Made by a program: the position numbers and the translations under genes. 64,000 bases of DNA from Rhodanobacteraceae bacterium (GTDB lineage Bacteria; Pseudomonadota; Gammaproteobacteria; Xanthomonadales; SZUA-5), in contig JADJPR010000023.1 in assembly GCA_016713135.1 (NCBI GenBank), forward strand, positions 668,427-732,426, in the 5' to 3' direction. The number at the start of each line of letters is the position of its first letter. Within the stretch, counting starts at the first letter, position 1. The notes under the pieces are model-generated. The model did not search any database. It was not told the origin of the DNA and was given only the letters and a program-made list of their open reading frames with translations. Shown piece by piece: positions 4,767-52,134 of the stretch.

Positions 4767-6368
<1,602 letters not shown>

Positions 6369-7211
6369 GCGCATTTGTGGGTTCGAACTTTGTTCGAACG
6401 CTTCTGCCCCGGATGGCACGACCAGCCCTGAGCGTCCGGACAAGGTCCGGACCCACGGGGGCTCATCGCCGCGTTGCCCCGCGGATGTGAGGGCATTTGT
6501 GGGTTCGAACCTTGTTCGAACGCTTCTGCCTCGGATGGCGACCAGCCCGAAGCGTCCGGACAAGGTCCGGACCCACGAGGGCTCATCGCCGCGTCGCCCT
6601 CGCGGATGTGGGGGCATTTGTGGGTTCGAACCTTGTTCGAACGCTTCTGCCTCGGATGGCACGACCAGCCCTGAGCGTCCGGACAAGGTCCGGACCCACG
6701 AGGGCTCATCGCCGCTTCGCCCTCGCGGATGTGGGGCATTTGTGGGTTCGAACCTTGTTCGAACGCTTCTGCCTCGGATGGCACGACCAGCCCGAAGCGT
6801 CCGGACTAGGTCCGGACCCACGAGGGCTCATCGCCGCGTCGCCCTCGCGGATGTAGGCGCATTTGTGGGTTCGAACCTTGTTCGAACGCTTCTGCCTCGG
6901 ATGGCACGACCAGCCCTGAGCGTGCGGACAAGGTCCGGACCCTCGAGGGCTCATCGCCGCGTCGGCCTCGCGGATGTGGGGGCATTTGTGGGTTCGAACC
7001 TTGTTCGAACGCTTCTGCCTCGGATGGCACGACCAGCCCTGAGCGTGCGGACAAGGTCCGGACCCTCGAGGGCTCATCGCCGCGTCGCCCTCGCGGATGT
7101 GGGGCATTTGTGGGTTCGAACCTTGTTCGAACGCTTCGGCCTCGGATGGCACGACCAGCCCGAAGCGTCCGGACAAGGTCCGGACCCACGAGGGCTCATC
7201 GCCGCTTCGCG
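6369..7211. repeat. tandem array of 7 x ~122 bp filling the prfC/permease convergent intergenic region
   Basis: The unit marker GCATTTGTGGGTTCGAAC recurs at 6371, 6493, 6614, 6736, 6859, 6982 and 7104 (periods 121-123). Each unit holds three potential hairpins: GTTCGAAC-ctt-GTTCGAAC, GTCCGGAC-aag-GTCCGGAC and CGAGGGC-N13-GCCCTCG. Confidence 0.9.
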
Positions 7212-14793: not shown

Positions 14794-14957
14794 GACGCAA
14801 AGGACGCAAAGGGGAGAAGAAAGGACGCAAAGGAAAGCAGGCGGGAAGCCGATCGGACCAGCCGCTCGCTGCATCTGCTTCCCTTGCTGCAACTGCTCCC
14901 CCGCTCCAATGGCTTCCTTCGTGTCCTTGCTTGCTGTTTTTTGCGTCCTTTGCGTCC
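14794..14957. repeat. oligomer-armed hairpin element (unit GACGCAAAG / CTTTGCGTC) inside the kdp operon
   Basis: Left arm: GACGCAAAG at 14794, 14803 and 14824. Right arm: CTTCGTGTC...TTTTGCGTC CTTTGCGTC, ending ~14957. It occupies most of the 243-nt kdpB-kdpC gap. Confidence 0.8.
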
Positions 14958-20697: not shown

Positions 20698-21396
20698 TCA
20701 AGACTTCTTGGCGGCTGGCTTCTTTGCCGGCGCCTTGGTGGCAGGCGCCTTCTTGGCCGGAGCCGCCTTCGCTGCAGGCTTCTTCGCCGGCGCCGCCTTG
20801 GCGGCCGGCTTCGCTGCAGCCTTGGCAGGCGCCTTGGCTGCGGGCTTCTTCGCCGGAGCCGCCTGCTTCGCCGGGGCCTTGGCTGCTGGCGCTGCCTTCT
20901 TCGCCGGGGCCTTGGCCGCTGGCGCTGCCTTCTTCGCCGGGGCCTTGGCCGCTGGCGCTGCCTTCTTCGCCGGAGCCTTGGCTGCCGGCGCCGCCTTCTT
21001 GGCCGGGGCCTTGGCCGGCTGTCCGGTCACCTTGGCAGCTGCGGCCTTGGCCTTGTCCACCGCCTTACCCACTTCCGCCTTGGCCTTTGCAACGGCCTTC
21101 TTCACCGCCTTGACCTTCGGCGCGGCGGCCTTCTCGGCTTTGGCCACGGTCTTCTTGGCAGCCTTCTTGACGTCAGCCACCTCCTTCTTGACCGCCTTGG
21201 TCACTTCGGCAGCCTTGGCTTCGACCGCCTTCTTGGCCGCACCGACTTTCTTCGCCGCAGCCTTCTTCACCGCCGCCACCTTGGATTCGGCCGCTGCAAC
21301 CGCTTCCTTGCCTTCCGCGATCAGCTTCTCGCCAATTGCCTCGGCCTTGTCTTTCAGCTCTTCGATCTTGCCCGCAATACCCTGATCACCGCTCAT
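20698..21396 (-). CDS. histone H1-like / AlgP-like Ala-Lys-Pro repeat nucleoid protein (232 aa)
   Basis: MSGDQGIAGKIEELKDKAEAIG... is followed by (APAKKAAPAAK)n. GAGGGAG lies 8 nt upstream of the ATG at the complement of 21394-21396. The rest of ORF 20698-21756 overlaps nrdJa and was discarded. Confidence 0.75.
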   Translation of the reverse strand: MSGDQGIAGKIEELKDKAEAIGEKLIAEGKEAVAAAESKVAAVKKAAAKKVGAAKKAVEAKAAEVTKAVKKEVADVKKAAKKTVAKAEKAAAPKVKAVKKAVAKAKAEVGKAVDKAKAAAAKVTGQPAKAPAKKAAPAAKAPAKKAAPAAKAPAKKAAPAAKAPAKKAAPAAKAPAKQAAPAKKPAAKAPAKAAAKPAAKAAPAKKPAAKAAPAKKAPATKAPAKKPAAKKS

Positions 21397-23786: not shown

Positions 23787-23954
23787 TGGTTGTGGGTTGT
23801 GGGTTGTGGGTTGTGGGTTGTGGGTTGTGGGTTCTGGGTTCTGGGTTGTGGGTTCTGGGTTGTGGGTTCTGGGTTGTGGGCAGAAAAGCCGGCCGCCGAC
23901 TGCATTCGCTTCGGCCTTTGCCGCCCACAACCCAGAACTCACAACCCCAGAACC
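23787..23954. repeat. oligomer-armed hairpin element (GGGTTGT/GGGTTCT heptamers vs ACAACCC/AGAACCC)
   Basis: The left arm has ~13 heptamers (23787-23881). The loop is AGAAAAGCCGGCCGCCGACTGCATTCGCTTCGGCCTTTGCC. The right arm (23923-23954) has only ~4 heptamers. The element ends 5 nt from the stop of the GGDEF-EAL gene. Confidence 0.85.
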
Positions 23955-28085: not shown

Positions 28086-28317
28086 CCGGTTAAACGCGGA
28101 GACGCAGAGAGCACGGAGGAAAGCCGCAGAGAAGGAGCGAGAGTGTTTCCGGGGAGACTCGAGCCTGCAGCACCTGCCGCGAACCCCGCCCACGTCTCTT
28201 GCTCGTCTCTGCGTCCTCCGCGTCTCTGCGTTGAATGGCCCCCGGCACTCCCGAGCCAAAACCTGACGCTCCTCCGCGGCTTTTCTCCGCGTCCTCCGCG
28301 TCTCCGCGTTTGACCGG
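28086..28317. mobile_element. MITE-like element with CCGGT(T/C)AAACGCGGAGACGC termini, copy 1
   Basis: Left end CCGGTTAAACGCGGAGACGCAGAGAG, right end ...CTCCGCGTCTCCGCGTTTGACCGG. The interior is rich in GCGGAG/GCAGAGA oligomers and their complements. It has the same termini as 51812-52134. Confidence 0.8.
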
Positions 28318-29760: not shown

Positions 29761-29858
29761 GAGGGCACGAGGGCATGAGGGCACGAGGGCACGTGAAAGC
29801 CGGCGCTCGCACTGGGCGGCTCTTGCGTGCCCTCGTGCCCTCGTGCCCTCGTGCCCTC
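29761..29858. repeat. oligomer-armed hairpin element (GAGGGCAC x4 / GTGCCCTC x4) between phoP and phoQ
   Basis: 32-nt arms at 29761-29792 and 29827-29858 are complementary with one mismatch, around a 34-nt loop. The loop is the reverse complement of the loops of the GAGGGCAC hairpins at 33249-33920. Confidence 0.9.
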
Positions 29859-39567: not shown

Positions 39568-41293
39568 GACCATCGCCCTCGATACTCTTCTGCCGGCGCT
39601 GGCCAATCGCCCGCTGCTGGCCTGGCGCGGCGCGCACAGTGTCGGCGGACCTGCTTTCCTGGCGCGCGTCGGCGCCTGGCATCGCGCGCTCGACCTGCCC
39701 GCCGGCAGCACCCTGGCGCTGGTGCATGGCGATGCGATCGAGTTCGCCGCAGCCCTGTACGCGGCCTGGCTGCGCCGGCTGGTGGTACTGGTGCCGGGCG
39801 ACACCCTGCCGGCCACCGTCGCGACCGTCGCCGCCGACGTGGCCGCCCTGGCCGGCGAGTTCGGCGCGGCCACGACCCACCCGCAGCCGCCCACGGACGC
39901 CGAACCGCTGCCGGCCGCGCTGCCGCTCGGCCTGGCGAGCCCCCTGGTGCTGCAGACCTCGGGCTCGACCGGCACACCGCTGCGGGTGCCCAAGACCCTG
40001 CGCCAGCTGGACGCCGAAGTACGCACGCTGGAGGCTTGCTTCGGCCATGCGCTCGGCAGCGCGCGGATCGCCGCCACGGTGTCGCACCAGCACATCTACG
40101 GCCTGCTGTTCCGCCTGCTCTGGCCGCTCGCCAGCGGGCGCGCTTTCGAGGCGCACGCGCATCCCTACCTGGAGTCCGTGGCGCCGCTGCTGGGCGAGGG
40201 TGCGACCGCGCTGGTGTCCAGCCCGGCGCACCTGAAGCGGCTGCCGGCGGGCATCGACTGGCATCCGGGCGGGCGCACGCTGTCGGCGCTGTTCTCCTCC
40301 GGCGGTCCGCTGGATGCACCCGCGGCGCAGGCGCTGCAGGCGGCGACCGGCGTGTTGCCGATCGAGGTCTGGGGCAGCACCGAGACCGGCGGTATCGGCT
40401 GGCGCCAGCAAGCGAGCAGCGATACGCCGTTCGCGCCGCTGCCCGGCGTGTCGCTGTCCGCGGATGAGCACGGCGCGCTGGTCCTGCGCTCGCCGCACCT
40501 CGCCAGCGAGGACTGGCAAAGGCTGGCCGATCGCGGCGACCTGGATCCGGATGGGCGGGTGCGCCTGCGCGGGCGCGACGACCGCATCGTCAAGATCGGC
40601 GAGAAGCGTGTTTCGCTCAGCGCCATCGAGCGCGCGGCGGCGGGCGGTCCGTGGCTGAACGAGGTGCGCCTGGTGGCGCTGCCCGGGGACCGGCTGCAGC
40701 TTGGTCTGGTGGGCGTGCCCAACGCTGCTGCGCGCGAGGTCCTGCTCAAGGCCGGCCGGCGCGCGCTGGCGGATGCGCTGCGCGCCGGACTGGCCGCGCA
40801 CTGCGAGCGCGTGGCGCTGCCGCGGCGCTTCCGCTTTGTCCATGCACTGCCGCAGAACAGCCAGGGCAAGACCACCGATGCCGCGCTGGCCGCGCTGTTC
40901 GCCGACACCGAAACGCGCCCGCTGCTGCCTTTCCACGACTGGCCTATGCGCGAAGCCTGTCGGGCGACCGCGGAGCTGTGGATAGGCCCGGACCTGTACC
41001 ATTTCCAGGGCCATTTTCCGGGACAGCCGATCCTCCCCGGCGTGGCCCAGATCGACTGGGCAATCAGCCTGGCGCGCCAGATGTTCGCGCTGCCGCCGCA
41101 CCTGGTGCGCATGGAGGCGCTCAAGTTCCAGGCACTGATCCAGCCCGGCACCCGCCTCACCCTGGACCTCGAATGGAAGCCAGACCGGCAGCAGTTGGAG
41201 TTCCGCGCGCACTCGGCGGCAGGGGCGCATGCGAGTGCCAGGCTCGTGTTCGATAGTGCGTGTTCTGGCGCAGAGGTGAGACGTGAAACGTGA
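39560..41293 (+). CDS. adenylate-forming (AMP-dependent) ligase fused to a C-terminal hot-dog dehydratase-like domain (577 aa)
   Basis: LQTSGSTGTPLRVPKT is an adenylation core motif. The C-terminus has YHFQGHFPGQPILPGVAQIDWAI (FabA/FabZ-like). The stop TGA at 41291-41293 lies inside the GTGAAAC repeat element. Confidence 0.85.
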   Translation: MPETIALDTLLPALANRPLLAWRGAHSVGGPAFLARVGAWHRALDLPAGSTLALVHGDAIEFAAALYAAWLRRLVVLVPGDTLPATVATVAADVAALAGEFGAATTHPQPPTDAEPLPAALPLGLASPLVLQTSGSTGTPLRVPKTLRQLDAEVRTLEACFGHALGSARIAATVSHQHIYGLLFRLLWPLASGRAFEAHAHPYLESVAPLLGEGATALVSSPAHLKRLPAGIDWHPGGRTLSALFSSGGPLDAPAAQALQAATGVLPIEVWGSTETGGIGWRQQASSDTPFAPLPGVSLSADEHGALVLRSPHLASEDWQRLADRGDLDPDGRVRLRGRDDRIVKIGEKRVSLSAIERAAAGGPWLNEVRLVALPGDRLQLGLVGVPNAAAREVLLKAGRRALADALRAGLAAHCERVALPRRFRFVHALPQNSQGKTTDAALAALFADTETRPLLPFHDWPMREACRATAELWIGPDLYHFQGHFPGQPILPGVAQIDWAISLARQMFALPPHLVRMEALKFQALIQPGTRLTLDLEWKPDRQQLEFRAHSAAGAHASARLVFDSACSGAEVRRET

Positions 41294-41455
41294 AACGGAG
41301 GAAGTGAAACGTGAAACGTAAAACGTCAATGGGCGGCGGCTCTGATTGACGTTTTACGTTTGACGTTTGACCTTTTCGCACCGCAACGTCAAAGGACCGC
41401 GCCTCCGATTGACGTTTCACGTTTCACGTTTGACCTTTGATTCCTCACGTTTGAA
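41276..41455. repeat. oligomer-armed hairpin element (GTGAAAC / GTTTCAC heptamers) with one left and two right arms
   Basis: Left arm: GTGAGAC GTGAAAC GTGAAAC ... GTGAAAC GTGAAAC GTAAAAC GTCAAT (41276-41330). Right arm 1: ATTGAC GTTTTAC GTTTGAC GTTTGAC (41345-41371). Right arm 2: ATTGAC GTTTCAC GTTTCAC GTTTGAC ... (41408-41455). Confidence 0.85.
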
Positions 41456-41485
41456 ATTCCCAGAGATTCCGAGCAGCCCCACCCC

Positions 41486-42229
41486 ATGCCCATCCGCCCC
41501 CTGATCGTCATCCCGGTCTACAACCACGAACGCGGCCTGGCGACGATGCTCGACGGGCTGCGCGCGAGTGGGTTGCCATGCCTGCTGGTGGATGACGGCA
41601 GCGAGCCGGGCTGCGCGGCGGCGCTGGCGGAGATGGCGCGGACACACGCCGGCTGGCTGAGTCTGGTCAGCCGCGCCGAGAACGGCGGCAAGGGCGCGGC
41701 GCTGATGACCGGCTTTGCCGAGGCGGCGCGGCGCGGCTACAGCCATGTGCTGCAGATCGACGCCGATGGCCAGCACGACACCGCGGACATCCCGCGCTTC
41801 CTGGCCGCGGCGCAGGCCAATCCGCAGGCGCTGATCCTGGGCCAGCCGCGCTACGACCAGAGCGTGCCGACCGGGCGCCTGATCGGGCGCTACGTGACCC
41901 ATGTCTGGGTCTGGATCAACACGCTGAGCCTGGCGATTGCCGACACCATGTGCGGCTTCCGCGTCTATCCGCTGGCGCCGGTGCAGGCCGTGCTGGCGCA
42001 GGAAAAGCTCGGCTCGCGGATGGATTTCGACACCGAGATCGTGGTCCGCCTGCATTGGCGCGGCGTGCGTGTGATCAATCTGCCCACGCCGGTGCGCTAC
42101 CCTGCCGATGGCGTGTCGCACTTCAAGCTGTGGCTGGACAATTTGATGATCTCGCGCATGCATGCGCGACTTTTCTTCGGCATGTTGTGGCGTGCGCCGC
42201 GGCTGCTGTGGCGGCGGCTTGCCGGATGA
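41486..42229 (+). CDS. family 2 glycosyltransferase (247 aa)
   Basis: LIVIPVYNHERGL...LLVDDGSEPG...QIDADGQH are GT2 signatures. Confidence 0.85.
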   Translation: MPIRPLIVIPVYNHERGLATMLDGLRASGLPCLLVDDGSEPGCAAALAEMARTHAGWLSLVSRAENGGKGAALMTGFAEAARRGYSHVLQIDADGQHDTADIPRFLAAAQANPQALILGQPRYDQSVPTGRLIGRYVTHVWVWINTLSLAIADTMCGFRVYPLAPVQAVLAQEKLGSRMDFDTEIVVRLHWRGVRVINLPTPVRYPADGVSHFKLWLDNLMISRMHARLFFGMLWRAPRLLWRRLAG

Positions 42230-45188: not shown

Positions 45189-46043
45189 ATGGCGCCGGGC
45201 ATCGCGCAGCGTGATCGACGCGCTCCGGGTTGCGCTGATGCACGCGCTGCAGGGTTGTGGGTTGTGGGTTGTGGGTTGTGGGCAGCGCGACCGGCGCGAG
45301 ATCCCGGGCGCAGGGCAACTTGGCTGGCCGCCATCTTCGCACTCGCCAGTGCCCTTGCTCCTGCCTTTGCTGCCCAGAACCCAGAACCCACAACCCAGAA
45401 CCCGCTTATCGCTGCCCACAACCCACAATCCACAACCCAGAACCCGCATATCGCTGCCCAGAACCCACAACCCACAACCCAGAACCCGCTGACCGCTGCC
45501 ACGGACCTCCTCACCACCATCGCCGCCCGCATCCAGCCCGCCGCGGTGCTGCGCGGCGAGTTCGTGCAGGAGCGCACGCTGGTGGGCTTCGCCAAACCGC
45601 TGCGCTCCACCGGGCGCTTCGTGGCGGCGCGCGGGCGCGGGGTGCTGTGGATCACGCAATCGCCGTTTCCGGGAGAACTGGTGATCACCGAGGGCGCGAT
45701 CCGCGAGCGGGTGGACGGCAGCGAGAGCGTGGTCGTCGATGCCAGCCGGGAACCTGCGCTGCAGCAAATCAATCGCGTGCTGCTGGCGCTGCTGCAGGGC
45801 GATCTCGCCACCCTGCGCGAGCAGTTCAGCGTGGCTGGCCAGGACGATTCCCAAGGTTGGGCGCTGACGCTGACGCCGCAGCCGCCGTTGAGCGAGGCCA
45901 TCGGCCTGGTCGAACTGGCCGGAAACAGCCAGGTCGAAGTGGTCAGCATCCGTGAGCACAACGGCGATCTCAGCCGGGTCGAGTTCCATGCGCTGTCCGG
46001 CGGCGACGCGCTGACCGCCGACGAAGCGGCGCGCCTTGACTGA
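45189..46043 (+). CDS. LolA-like outer-membrane lipoprotein-carrier family protein; its N-terminus is read through a hairpin repeat element (284 aa if the ATG at 45189 is used)
   Basis: The conserved body is DLLTTIAARIQPAAVLRGEFVQERTLVGFAKPLRSTGRFVAARGRGVLWITQSPF... The only upstream in-frame ATG is 45189. The signal-like stretch RRATWLAAIFALASALAPAFAA lies in the loop of the repeat element. Confidence 0.65.
   Translation: MAPGIAQRDRRAPGCADARAAGLWVVGCGLWAARPARDPGRRATWLAAIFALASALAPAFAAQNPEPTTQNPLIAAHNPQSTTQNPHIAAQNPQPTTQNPLTAATDLLTTIAARIQPAAVLRGEFVQERTLVGFAKPLRSTGRFVAARGRGVLWITQSPFPGELVITEGAIRERVDGSESVVVDASREPALQQINRVLLALLQGDLATLREQFSVAGQDDSQGWALTLTPQPPLSEAIGLVELAGNSQVEVVSIREHNGDLSRVEFHALSGGDALTADEAARLD
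45252..45494. repeat. oligomer-armed hairpin element (GGGTTGT heptamers; right arm = 3 x 42 nt) inside the LolA-like reading frame
   Basis: Left arm: GGGTTGT x4 (45252-45283). Right arm 45369-45494 = GCTGCCCAGAACCCAGAACCCACAACCCAGAACCCGCTTATC and two variants. Related to 23787-23954. Confidence 0.85.
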
Positions 46044-51819: not shown

Positions 51820-52134
51820 ACGCGGAGACGCAGAGGGCGCGGAGAAAAGCGCCGAGAAGGCAGGAGGGTTCGGCGGCCGGAAACGGGTTGTCTCGCGGGC
51901 CGGACAAAGAGCAGGACGCAGAGAACGCAGAGGAGAAGCAGAGAGATCACAGAGGGAGCGGGCCATTCCTGTGCCCGCTGGAACGTCGTTCTTTGCCTTC
52001 TCCGCGATCTCTCTGCCTTTCCTCTGCGCTCTCTGCGTCCTGCTTCGTCCTCGGTCCCCGGCGATGCCCGACCGTGCCCTGCCGCACCCTCTGCTGCTCT
52101 TCTCCGCGCTCTCTGCGTCTCCGCGTTTAACCGG
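51812..52134. mobile_element. MITE-like element with CCGGTTAAACGCGGAGACGCAGAG termini, copy 2
   Basis: Perfect 24-nt terminal inverted repeats. An internal second hairpin is built from GCAGAGA-type oligomers. It lies between the dehydratase and ketoreductase genes. Confidence 0.85.

Follow-up and report, generated by a model that had tools for sequence, protein, structure and literature searches.

A GTGAAAC palindrome between two pigment-pathway genes of a Rhodanobacteraceae bacterium is probably one locus of a dispersed, REP-like repeat family

We analyzed a 64-kb stretch of a Rhodanobacteraceae bacterium contig (JADJPR010000023.1; this whole stretch of 64,000 nucleotides is called the window below). 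In it, a 180-base palindromic repeat made of GTGAAAC units lies at 41276-41455, between two pigment-pathway genes. The upstream gene encodes an AMP-ligase / ApeI-like dehydratase, and the downstream gene a family-2 glycosyltransferase (Table 1). With moderate confidence, we regard this feature as one locus of a dispersed family of palindromic repeats that resembles REP (repetitive extragenic palindromic) elements and has arms of tandem GTNAAAC heptamers, and we regard it as a passive element, not a conditional switch.

A sequence-only reading of this DNA had described a left arm of about seven GTGAAAC-like units and two right arms, and all of these parts were found in place; the left arm has seven units, and the right arms are built of GTTTNAC units. 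It had also pointed to unit-related sequence in the spacer between the right arms; AACGTCAA, a remnant of a left-arm tip, lies there. The two arrays converge on opposite strands and lie close together. The inner left arm is complementary to right arm 1 over 27 nt (93%) and to right arm 2 over 35 nt (89%), including part of the loops. Tandem Repeats Finder reported a period of 7 at the element, with 7.3, 4.3 and 4.6 copies. When the window was searched for GTGAAACGTGAAAC at up to two mismatches, nine matches were obtained against 0.18 expected by chance, every one of them within the element.

The GGAGGAA that interrupts the left arm looks, from its sequence, like the mark of a 28-nt tandem duplication of [GAGG(AA)GTGAAACGTGAAACG] inside this arm. 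Right arm 2, in turn, may be the remnant of a second copy of the family or the product of an old 63-nt tandem duplication. The direct repeat in its region is 87% identical and limited to the parts of the family consensus, while the spacers after the arms are unrelated. As these are the parts that any two family members share, the two origins are not separable.

Table 1. Features at the junction of the ligase-dehydratase and glycosyltransferase genes (positions in the window).
Feature	Position	Strand	Sequence, relation or basis
AMP-ligase / ApeI-like dehydratase gene	39509..41293	+	Pfam AMP-binding and ApeI-like; C-terminal alignment of 30 homologues; translation
Left arm	41276-41330	+	GTGAGAC GTGAAAC GTGAAAC, GGAGGAA, GTGAAAC GTGAAAC GTAAAAC GTCAAT
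Outer left arm (LA)	41276..41296	+	GTGAGAC GTGAAAC GTGAAAC; holds the stop codon 41291-41293; partner in the predicted fold is right arm 2
GGAGGAA interruption	41297..41303	+	Read from the sequence; resembles a copy of the left flank of the element (CAGAGG)
Inner left arm (LB)	41304..41330	+	GTGAAAC GTGAAAC GTAAAAC and tip GTCAAT; canonical left arm of the family
Loop 1	41331..41344	+	GGGCGGCGGCTCTG; related to the family loop consensus ~TCGAAGCGCGCTCTG
Right arm 1 (R1)	41345..41371	+	ATTGAC GTTTTAC GTTTGAC GTTTGAC; pairs with the inner left arm
Spacer	41372..41384	+	13 nt, CTTTTCGCACCGC; CCTTT(T/C)CGC right-terminus type also in family members (L056)
Second left-arm-tip remnant and loop 2	41385..41407	+	AACGTCAA at 41385-41392; loop 2 AGGACCGCGCCTCCG at 41393-41407
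Right arm 2 (R2)	41408..41455	+	ATTGAC GTTTCAC GTTTCAC GTTTGAC (41408-41434), then degenerate CTTTGAT TCCTCAC GTTTGAA; pairs with the outer left arm
Family-2 glycosyltransferase gene	41486..42229	+	Pfam GT2; ATG at 41486

The family was searched for by an exact scan of the GTDB representative genomes with the 20-mer GTGAAACGTNAAACGTCAAT; the source genome of the window is not among the representatives matched. The scan returned 109 stretches, where our own estimate of the chance expectation is about 4, so that the 20-mer is about 25-fold in excess. In five Lysobacterales genomes it is multi-copy, on 4-22 contigs each. About 36 hairpins from these five genomes share their arms, their tips, a near-palindromic loop (~TCGAAGCGCGCTCTG) and their terminal motifs (GCAAGCAG or AGCGG). 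Their consensus reads [GCAAGCAGRG or RAGCGG]-(GTNAAAC)x3-GTCAAT-loop of about 14 nt-ATTGAC-(GTTTNAC)x3-[complementary end], and the inner hairpin of the window and both of its loops match this pattern. Within the unit, position 3 is free and pairs in about 49% of cases, and the other six positions (GT-AAAC) are conserved.

The family copies keep to a particular genomic context. None of the 36 lies inside an open reading frame (ORF); 18 lie between co-directional genes, 6 between convergent and 2 between divergent ones. Of 35 copies, 13 begin -7 to +11 nt from a stop codon reading toward them. Many members fill the entire space from a stop codon to the next start, although the start-codon positions used in this survey are approximate.

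Outside the Lysobacterales, multiple copies of the 20-mer also occur in Paracnuella aquatica, Taibaiella soli, Flavisolibacter and Pinibacter (Chitinophagaceae are among the carriers), as well as in several Chloroflexota/Anaerolineae metagenome-assembled genomes (MAGs), Ignavibacteria and Verrucomicrobiota (L016-L121). Most of these copies are long direct arrays that mix GTGAAAC, GTCAAAC, GTCAATC and GTGAATG. An inverted partner accompanies 33 of 61 arrays in the Lysobacterales, versus 2 of 30 and 6 of 28 in sets from these other lineages. No copies were found on viral contigs, which were considered as a phage vehicle, and a literature search for the repeat sequence returned only matches to human microRNA (miRNA) primers.

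Three Lysobacterales MAG loci (L084 5300-5700, L109 ~6500-6700 and L039 7250-7700) carry tandem arrays of ~98-111-nt units. In each unit, a GTAG-tagged REP (GTAGGTCACGTTGACCGC...GCGGTCTACGTGAC) is joined to a GTGAAAC left half (GTGAAACGTGAAACGTAAAACGTCAAT) that has no right arm. Half-elements thus take part in mosaics that resemble the bacterial interspersed mosaic elements (BIMEs).

At the locus itself, the element reaches into the upstream gene. The sequence-only reading had proposed that the stop codon of the ligase-dehydratase gene and the six codons before it (EVRRET*) are element sequence, and this holds: these codons occupy 41273-41293, with the TGA at 41291-41293 in the third unit. The ORF ends ...LVFDSACSGAEVRRET (also written ...ARLVFDSACSGAEVRRET), and the residues after ...ARLVF (from 41252) form a non-conserved tail. 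The C-terminal alignment of 30 homologues is in line with this. Homologues end at ...ARLVF plus 0-4 residues, and orthologues without a GTGAAAC-encoded tail stop 11-13 residues earlier, at ...ARLVF[A/G/E]. Repeat-encoded tails occur only in the three closest homologues, where they read EVRRET* (P0001 and the window), EVKRETEEVKRET (P0002) and EVKRETSMGDRTSALD (P0003), and their sequence depends on the number of units. A GTGAAAC array presents a TGA within five codons whichever frame is read, so that a gene running into it will always be terminated, and the element consequently supplies a stop codon and a short, variable, non-conserved tail.

We then compared the orthologous junctions, whose ligase genes group by nucleotide identity as ((window, L001 88.9%), L004 82%), (L009, L011) ~75%. 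The element is present at the junction throughout a clade of 74-97% nucleotide identity. In L001, the closest distinct lineage, the same duplicated left arm has one unit fewer (two in the outer arm); this shifts the frame, moves the stop codon 7 codons downstream and lengthens the tail by 7 residues. L001 forms a single hairpin with one right arm, in which right arm 2 is absent and 7 left units face 4 right units. L004 has two complete, separate hairpins, the first with a right arm identical to right arm 1 of the window and the second at the site of right arm 2. The GGAGGAA duplication of the left arm is common to the window and L001 and absent in L004. L009 and L011 have one hairpin each, bounded by the same GAGCGGTGAA...TTCACCGCTC ends; its first unit again holds the stop codon, and only 5-9 nt separate the 3' base of its stem from the ATG downstream. 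The interiors of these two hairpins (L009 11690-11800, L011 3745-3875) are purine-rich (GGAAAAT, GGAAAAG), with one arm expanded, the opposite one in each lineage. As the ends are kept while the interiors have changed, unit identity can drift in place.

The junction of L008 is identical to that of the window. Its identity of 100% across the junction, compared with 96.7% overall, is uninformative about extra conservation of the element, as mismatch-free runs of 413 nt occur in coding sequence as well (a mosaic pattern). Further away, the two genes are tightly packed. In L012 they overlap (ATGATTGA), and in 41 of 43 more distant clusters, found by way of the glycosyltransferase, the distance between the ligase stop and the approximate glycosyltransferase start is -11 to +23 nt. 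The hairpin spacer is therefore a derived insertion of one clade. As read from these alignments, it later changed as 7-nt units slipped, as 28 nt of the left arm were duplicated and as a second hairpin was gained or decayed, and this history left the window with one long left arm and two right arms.

The neighbors of the two genes include a ketosynthase (KS)-like gene, an acyltransferase, two acyl carrier proteins, a lipid-A-type acyltransferase and an aromatic amino-acid lyase, a set that identifies an aryl-polyene (xanthomonadin-like) cluster. In the KS-like ORF (36320-37684), positions 37506-37559 form a near-pure G/C run (GGGGGCCCGGGGCGGGGG..., with 34 nt at 87% G), and the alignments that megablast gave to L001, L004 and L006 are interrupted over 37498-37627. 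Either the gene carries a hypervariable insert here or the assembly is faulty.

The window contains at least eight further hairpins whose arms are tandem 7-9-nt units (GAGGGCAC, GACGCAAAG, GGTTGTG, CGTCTCTG and others), and several of these unit families recur in other Lysobacterales genomes. Tandem-arm hairpins are thus a genome-wide phenomenon and not a device specific to this operon. The further intergenic ones lie at 14794-14957, 23788-23953, 28204-28309, 29761-29858, 45252-45500 (in the same aryl-polyene cluster) and 51921-52126. Their units vary by locus: GACGCAAAG (9 nt), GGTTGTG/GGTTCTG (7 nt, 13 copies), CGTCTCTG/CGTCCTCCG (8 nt), GAGGGCAC (8 nt), GGGTTGT versus CCCACAA/CCCAGAA (7 nt, with three 42-nt right-arm blocks), and GAGAACGCAGAG.

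Other repeats in the window are of different construction. At 33003-33968, tandem units of ~190 nt (378-nt super-period) carry a conserved block of ~55 nt (TGTTCGGTGAGAGTCCCGGTCGCCCCTGGCGGTGCGCTTATTCGCGCATCGAAC), after which hairpins of the GACGCAAAG and GAGGGCAC types alternate. No Rfam match was found there; a BIME-like mosaic is one possible reading of the array, a small-RNA gene in repeated copies another. Beside it, at 33980-34220, three AACCAACACCAACAACC-type hexamer arrays lie ~80 nt apart, and behind each of them comes part of its reverse complement (GGTGTTGG); an AACACC inverted pair is also present at a 'Xanthomonas sp.' MAG locus (L073). The array at 6362-7210 (a 123-nt unit, 6.9 copies, 94% identity) has self-complementary octamers after GTGG (GTGGGTTCGAACCTTGTTCGAAC, and also the reverse complement of GTCCGGACAAGGTCCGGACCCAC) and, judged by these motifs, looks like a classical GT(A/G)G-tagged REP/BIME array. 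Finally, 20704-21277 shows 15-, 30- and 33-nt periodic repeats (GCCTTCTTCGCCGGGGCCTTGGCCGCTGGCGCT, 4.8 copies, 92%) with a strongly negative AT skew; the minus strand may encode a repetitive protein here.

The closest known counterpart of the GTNAAAC family is found within the same order. Xanthomonas campestris and X. axonopodis genomes each hold 70-75 convergent inverted pairs of GGGAATC heptamers. Of these, 65-70% lie between co-oriented, 16% between convergent and 7-8% between divergent genes; they are mostly transcribed, they lie within 50 bp of a stop codon or overlap it, their position is conserved while their length varies, and a G-quadruplex has been proposed for them (Rehm 2015, PMC4692102). 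The GTNAAAC family likewise has 7-nt tandem units (~3-4 per array) in opposite-strand arrays able to form a stem-loop. It is likewise intergenic, mostly between co-oriented ORFs and rarely between divergent ones, near or over the stop codon, and its position is kept while its unit number varies. At least two tandem heptamers, convergent arrays and intergenic placement are found at our element and in its family, but the G-rich GGGNATC unit is not. The GTNAAAC family also has features of its own, namely the tip GTCAAT/ATTGAC, a loop consensus and conserved ends. We conclude that the family is a non-G-rich member of the heptamer inverted-repeat, REP-like class of the Xanthomonadales/Lysobacterales. 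As the GTGAAAC/GTTTCAC unit has no G-tracts and cannot form a G-quadruplex, the explanation offered for GGGAATC does not generalize.

With the REP, BIME and REPIN (REP-doublet) elements of Enterobacteria and Pseudomonas (PMC3733652, PMC3116915, PMC2817692), the family shares, in the five related genomes, its nature as dispersed, multi-copy intergenic palindromes that form composite arrays and lie mostly downstream of genes and within operons. REP elements are transcribed into stable hairpins, as our element probably is. In terms of dispersal, the exact 20-mer is multi-copy in five related genomes, at 9-22 contigs per genome by this count, with one copy in the window. In contrast to REPs, which have a stem of 5-13 bp and a loop of 2-5 nt (2-20 nt as defined for the GTAG/CGTC-tagged class), GTNAAAC arms consist of 27-50 nt of tandem heptamers around a loop of ~14 nt, and the unpaired GTAG/CGTC tag is missing. 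A CGTC-tagged REP was considered because the tip reads CGTCAAT...ATTGACG. It was rejected, as the tag must be unpaired and accompanied by a stem of 8-9 bp and a loop of 4-5 nt (PMC3733652), whereas here the CGTC is base-paired and the ends are GCAAGCAG or AGCGG.

The cyanobacterial short tandemly repeated repetitive (STRR) sequences and the TAACTGA repeats of Beggiatoaceae, Cyanobacteria and Bacteroidetes (MacGregor 2015, PMC4679880) also have a heptamer period, are intergenic, are patchily distributed across phyla without a known vehicle and, in forward orientation, give stops in all frames. These are overwhelmingly direct arrays, many of them just upstream of starts, whereas the Lysobacterales family consists mostly of hairpins at gene 3' ends. 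Intrastrand triplex repeats (PMC4666352) were judged irrelevant.

We also folded the element. The RNA of 41260-41470 is predicted to reach -94.6 kcal/mol (z = -7.5), and the single-stranded DNA fold has z = -7.0. The sequence-only reading had proposed mutually exclusive hairpins, in which the left arm pairs with one right arm or with the other. The prediction did not support this: in the minimum-free-energy (MFE) fold and in the ensemble the hairpins are nested, and both right arms are used simultaneously, as the left arm is long enough for both. In the ensemble, the inner left arm pairs with right arm 1 at p = 0.91 and with right arm 2 at p = 0.00, the outer left arm pairs with right arm 2 at p = 0.78, and the remnant AACGTCAA and the tip of right arm 2 make up a small hairpin (p ~0.5). 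Blocking right arm 1 raised the energy to -70.2 kcal/mol and blocking right arm 2 to -58.1; exclusive use of right arm 2 costs 24 kcal/mol when forced. In co-transcriptional truncations, the outer helix is merely added once right arm 2 has been made. If something covers the outer left arm, such as a ribosome that has reached the stop codon, the predicted MFE fold changes to the inner left arm with right arm 2 and right arm 1 with the AACGTCAA remnant, at -66.9 kcal/mol. Thus, a switch from right arm 1 to right arm 2 arises in silico solely when the outer left arm is occluded, and this predicted switch is without evident output.

Regulatory signals around the element were also searched for. No terminator-like site was found in 40800-41900, and promoter or terminator consensus was not found; the tails after the two arms are CCTTTTCGC and CCTTTGATTCC. 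Consequently, the element is probably transcribed within the operon mRNA. Rfam gave no match at the gathering threshold over the whole window, and at E up to 10 the element had only sub-threshold matches to miRNA hairpins. No recognizable Shine-Dalgarno sequence was seen in the 30 nt upstream of the glycosyltransferase ATG, and the element does not specifically sequester this start region in either conformation.

In our preferred reading of a passive, REP-like element, the repeat in the operon mRNA would fold into a very stable nested double hairpin (a predicted -95 kcal/mol). Classical REPs protect upstream mRNA from 3'-5' decay, as at malE-malF. By analogy with REP and BIME elements, the hairpin would act as a passive barrier to 3'-5' exonucleases or as a processing site. 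In this way, what lies upstream in the operon and what lies downstream would become independent of each other in stability and translation, as a constitutive effect. The family may have spread by transposition, or by local amplification and gene conversion.

Several observations weigh against this reading. Its RNA-level role is argued by analogy, and the family offers little that would favor the mRNA strand: G:U versus A:C mismatches in the mRNA sense number 27 versus 18, and loop orientation relative to transcription is 6 versus 5 with 13 ambiguous, that is, without bias. Hence there is no signature of a strand-specific RNA function. Pairing of position 3 in only about half of the cases is as compatible with a neutral or selfish repeat as with a functional hairpin. 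The 64-kb window holds no other GTGAAAC copy, and multi-copy status holds for the related genomes (63-66% GC) only. No transposase, target-site duplication or empty/filled polymorphism was found (no genome-wide HUH/Y1 scan was made), which leaves mobility unproven. As for the hallmarks of miniature inverted-repeat transposable elements, no flanking direct duplication is evident in the ~36 copies and no empty site with precise boundaries was recovered, while inverted ends are trivially present.

The best surviving alternative places the function in DNA: the arrays would be bound by a transposase, a recombinase, a nucleoid protein or the like, or act as cruciform or slipped DNA, and RNA folding would be incidental. 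A conserved GT-AAAC around a free position 3 that pairs in only about 49% of cases looks more like a recognition motif than a compensatory stem, and the family shows no bias of strand or orientation with respect to transcription. The direct arrays without hairpins in Bacteroidota and Chloroflexota (GTGAAAC, GTCAATC, GTGAATG) point in the same direction, as do the half-elements beside GTAG-type REPs in the BIME-like arrays of L084, L109 and L039. However, no candidate protein was identified, no copies turned up on viral contigs, and the strong bias to gene 3' ends, away from divergent promoters, is that of transcribed or tolerated elements of the 3' untranslated region. We consider this explanation unlikely.

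A slightly smaller chance can be given to a translational-coupling bridge, in which the base of the stem keeps stop and start close together, or a terminating ribosome melts it, so that coupling by reinitiation survives the insertion. The ancestral junction, where the genes overlapped or lay no more than 23 nt apart, would suit such coupling. So would the stop codon in the 5' stem base, both here and in L009 and L011, where the ATG follows the stem closely, the many family members that span the entire stop-start space, and the lack of a visible Shine-Dalgarno sequence before the glycosyltransferase ATG. In the window, however, this ATG lies 31 nt past the last degenerate unit and 52 nt past the paired part of right arm 2, and it is unsequestered. 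In addition, 6 of 26 family sites lie between convergent genes, where coupling is irrelevant, and the start positions in the context survey are only approximate.

We give a similarly small chance to the possibility that the element is a purely local by-product, a short palindrome grown in place by replication slippage, with neither function nor mobility, whose likeness to sequences elsewhere is convergence. Slippage is compatible with unit numbers that differ between arms and lineages and with the expansion of a single arm (7 versus 4 units in L001, opposite arms in L009 and L011). It is also compatible with the 28-nt internal duplication of the left arm and with window hairpins built from at least five different units. 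The ~25-fold over-representation of the 20-mer argues against it, and units, tip, loop consensus and terminal motifs are common to five genomes, which independent slippage would not yield.

A broader and quite improbable conjecture is that the Lysobacterales possess a mechanism that recognizes or generates GTNAAAC arrays, present in another form in Bacteroidota and Chloroflexota. Insertion would favor operon stop/start junctions, the stem base would keep coupling across an insertion of 70-180 nt, and slippage would retune C-termini and coupling.

Finally, the sequence-only reading had seen an attenuator-like geometry. In such an attenuator, the choice between right arm 1 and right arm 2 would decide transcription or translation into the glycosyltransferase gene. 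The complementarity of the inner left arm to both right arms and the predicted MFE switch under blockage of the outer left arm speak for such a device. The element also resembles trp-type leaders and riboswitch platforms in that one segment is complementary to two downstream segments, between co-directional genes. It differs from them in having no U-tract terminator and no sensor (neither leader peptide nor aptamer), in alternatives that are not exclusive and in a second arm that is not conserved. Right arm 2 is missing in L001 and L004 has a self-contained second hairpin, so the competing geometry is not conserved among close relatives. As the free RNA uses both arms together, the glycosyltransferase start is unsequestered in both conformations and the same type of element sits at dozens of unrelated junctions, we regard an attenuator as very improbable.

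The element reveals no new way in which aryl-polyene biosynthesis is regulated. What the locus illustrates is that a repeat element can capture the stop codon of a gene and, through slippage of 7-nt units, reshape the C-terminus, as in three close lineages with three different tails, and that a tightly coupled junction of a biosynthetic operon can be split by ~100-190 nt while the cluster is retained. In genome annotation, sites of this kind can be expected to give spurious extensions of C-termini and hairpins that only look regulatory. For the family as a whole, these results extend the heptamer inverted repeats of Xanthomonas to a unit that is not G-rich, and they argue against the G-quadruplex as an explanation for the entire class.

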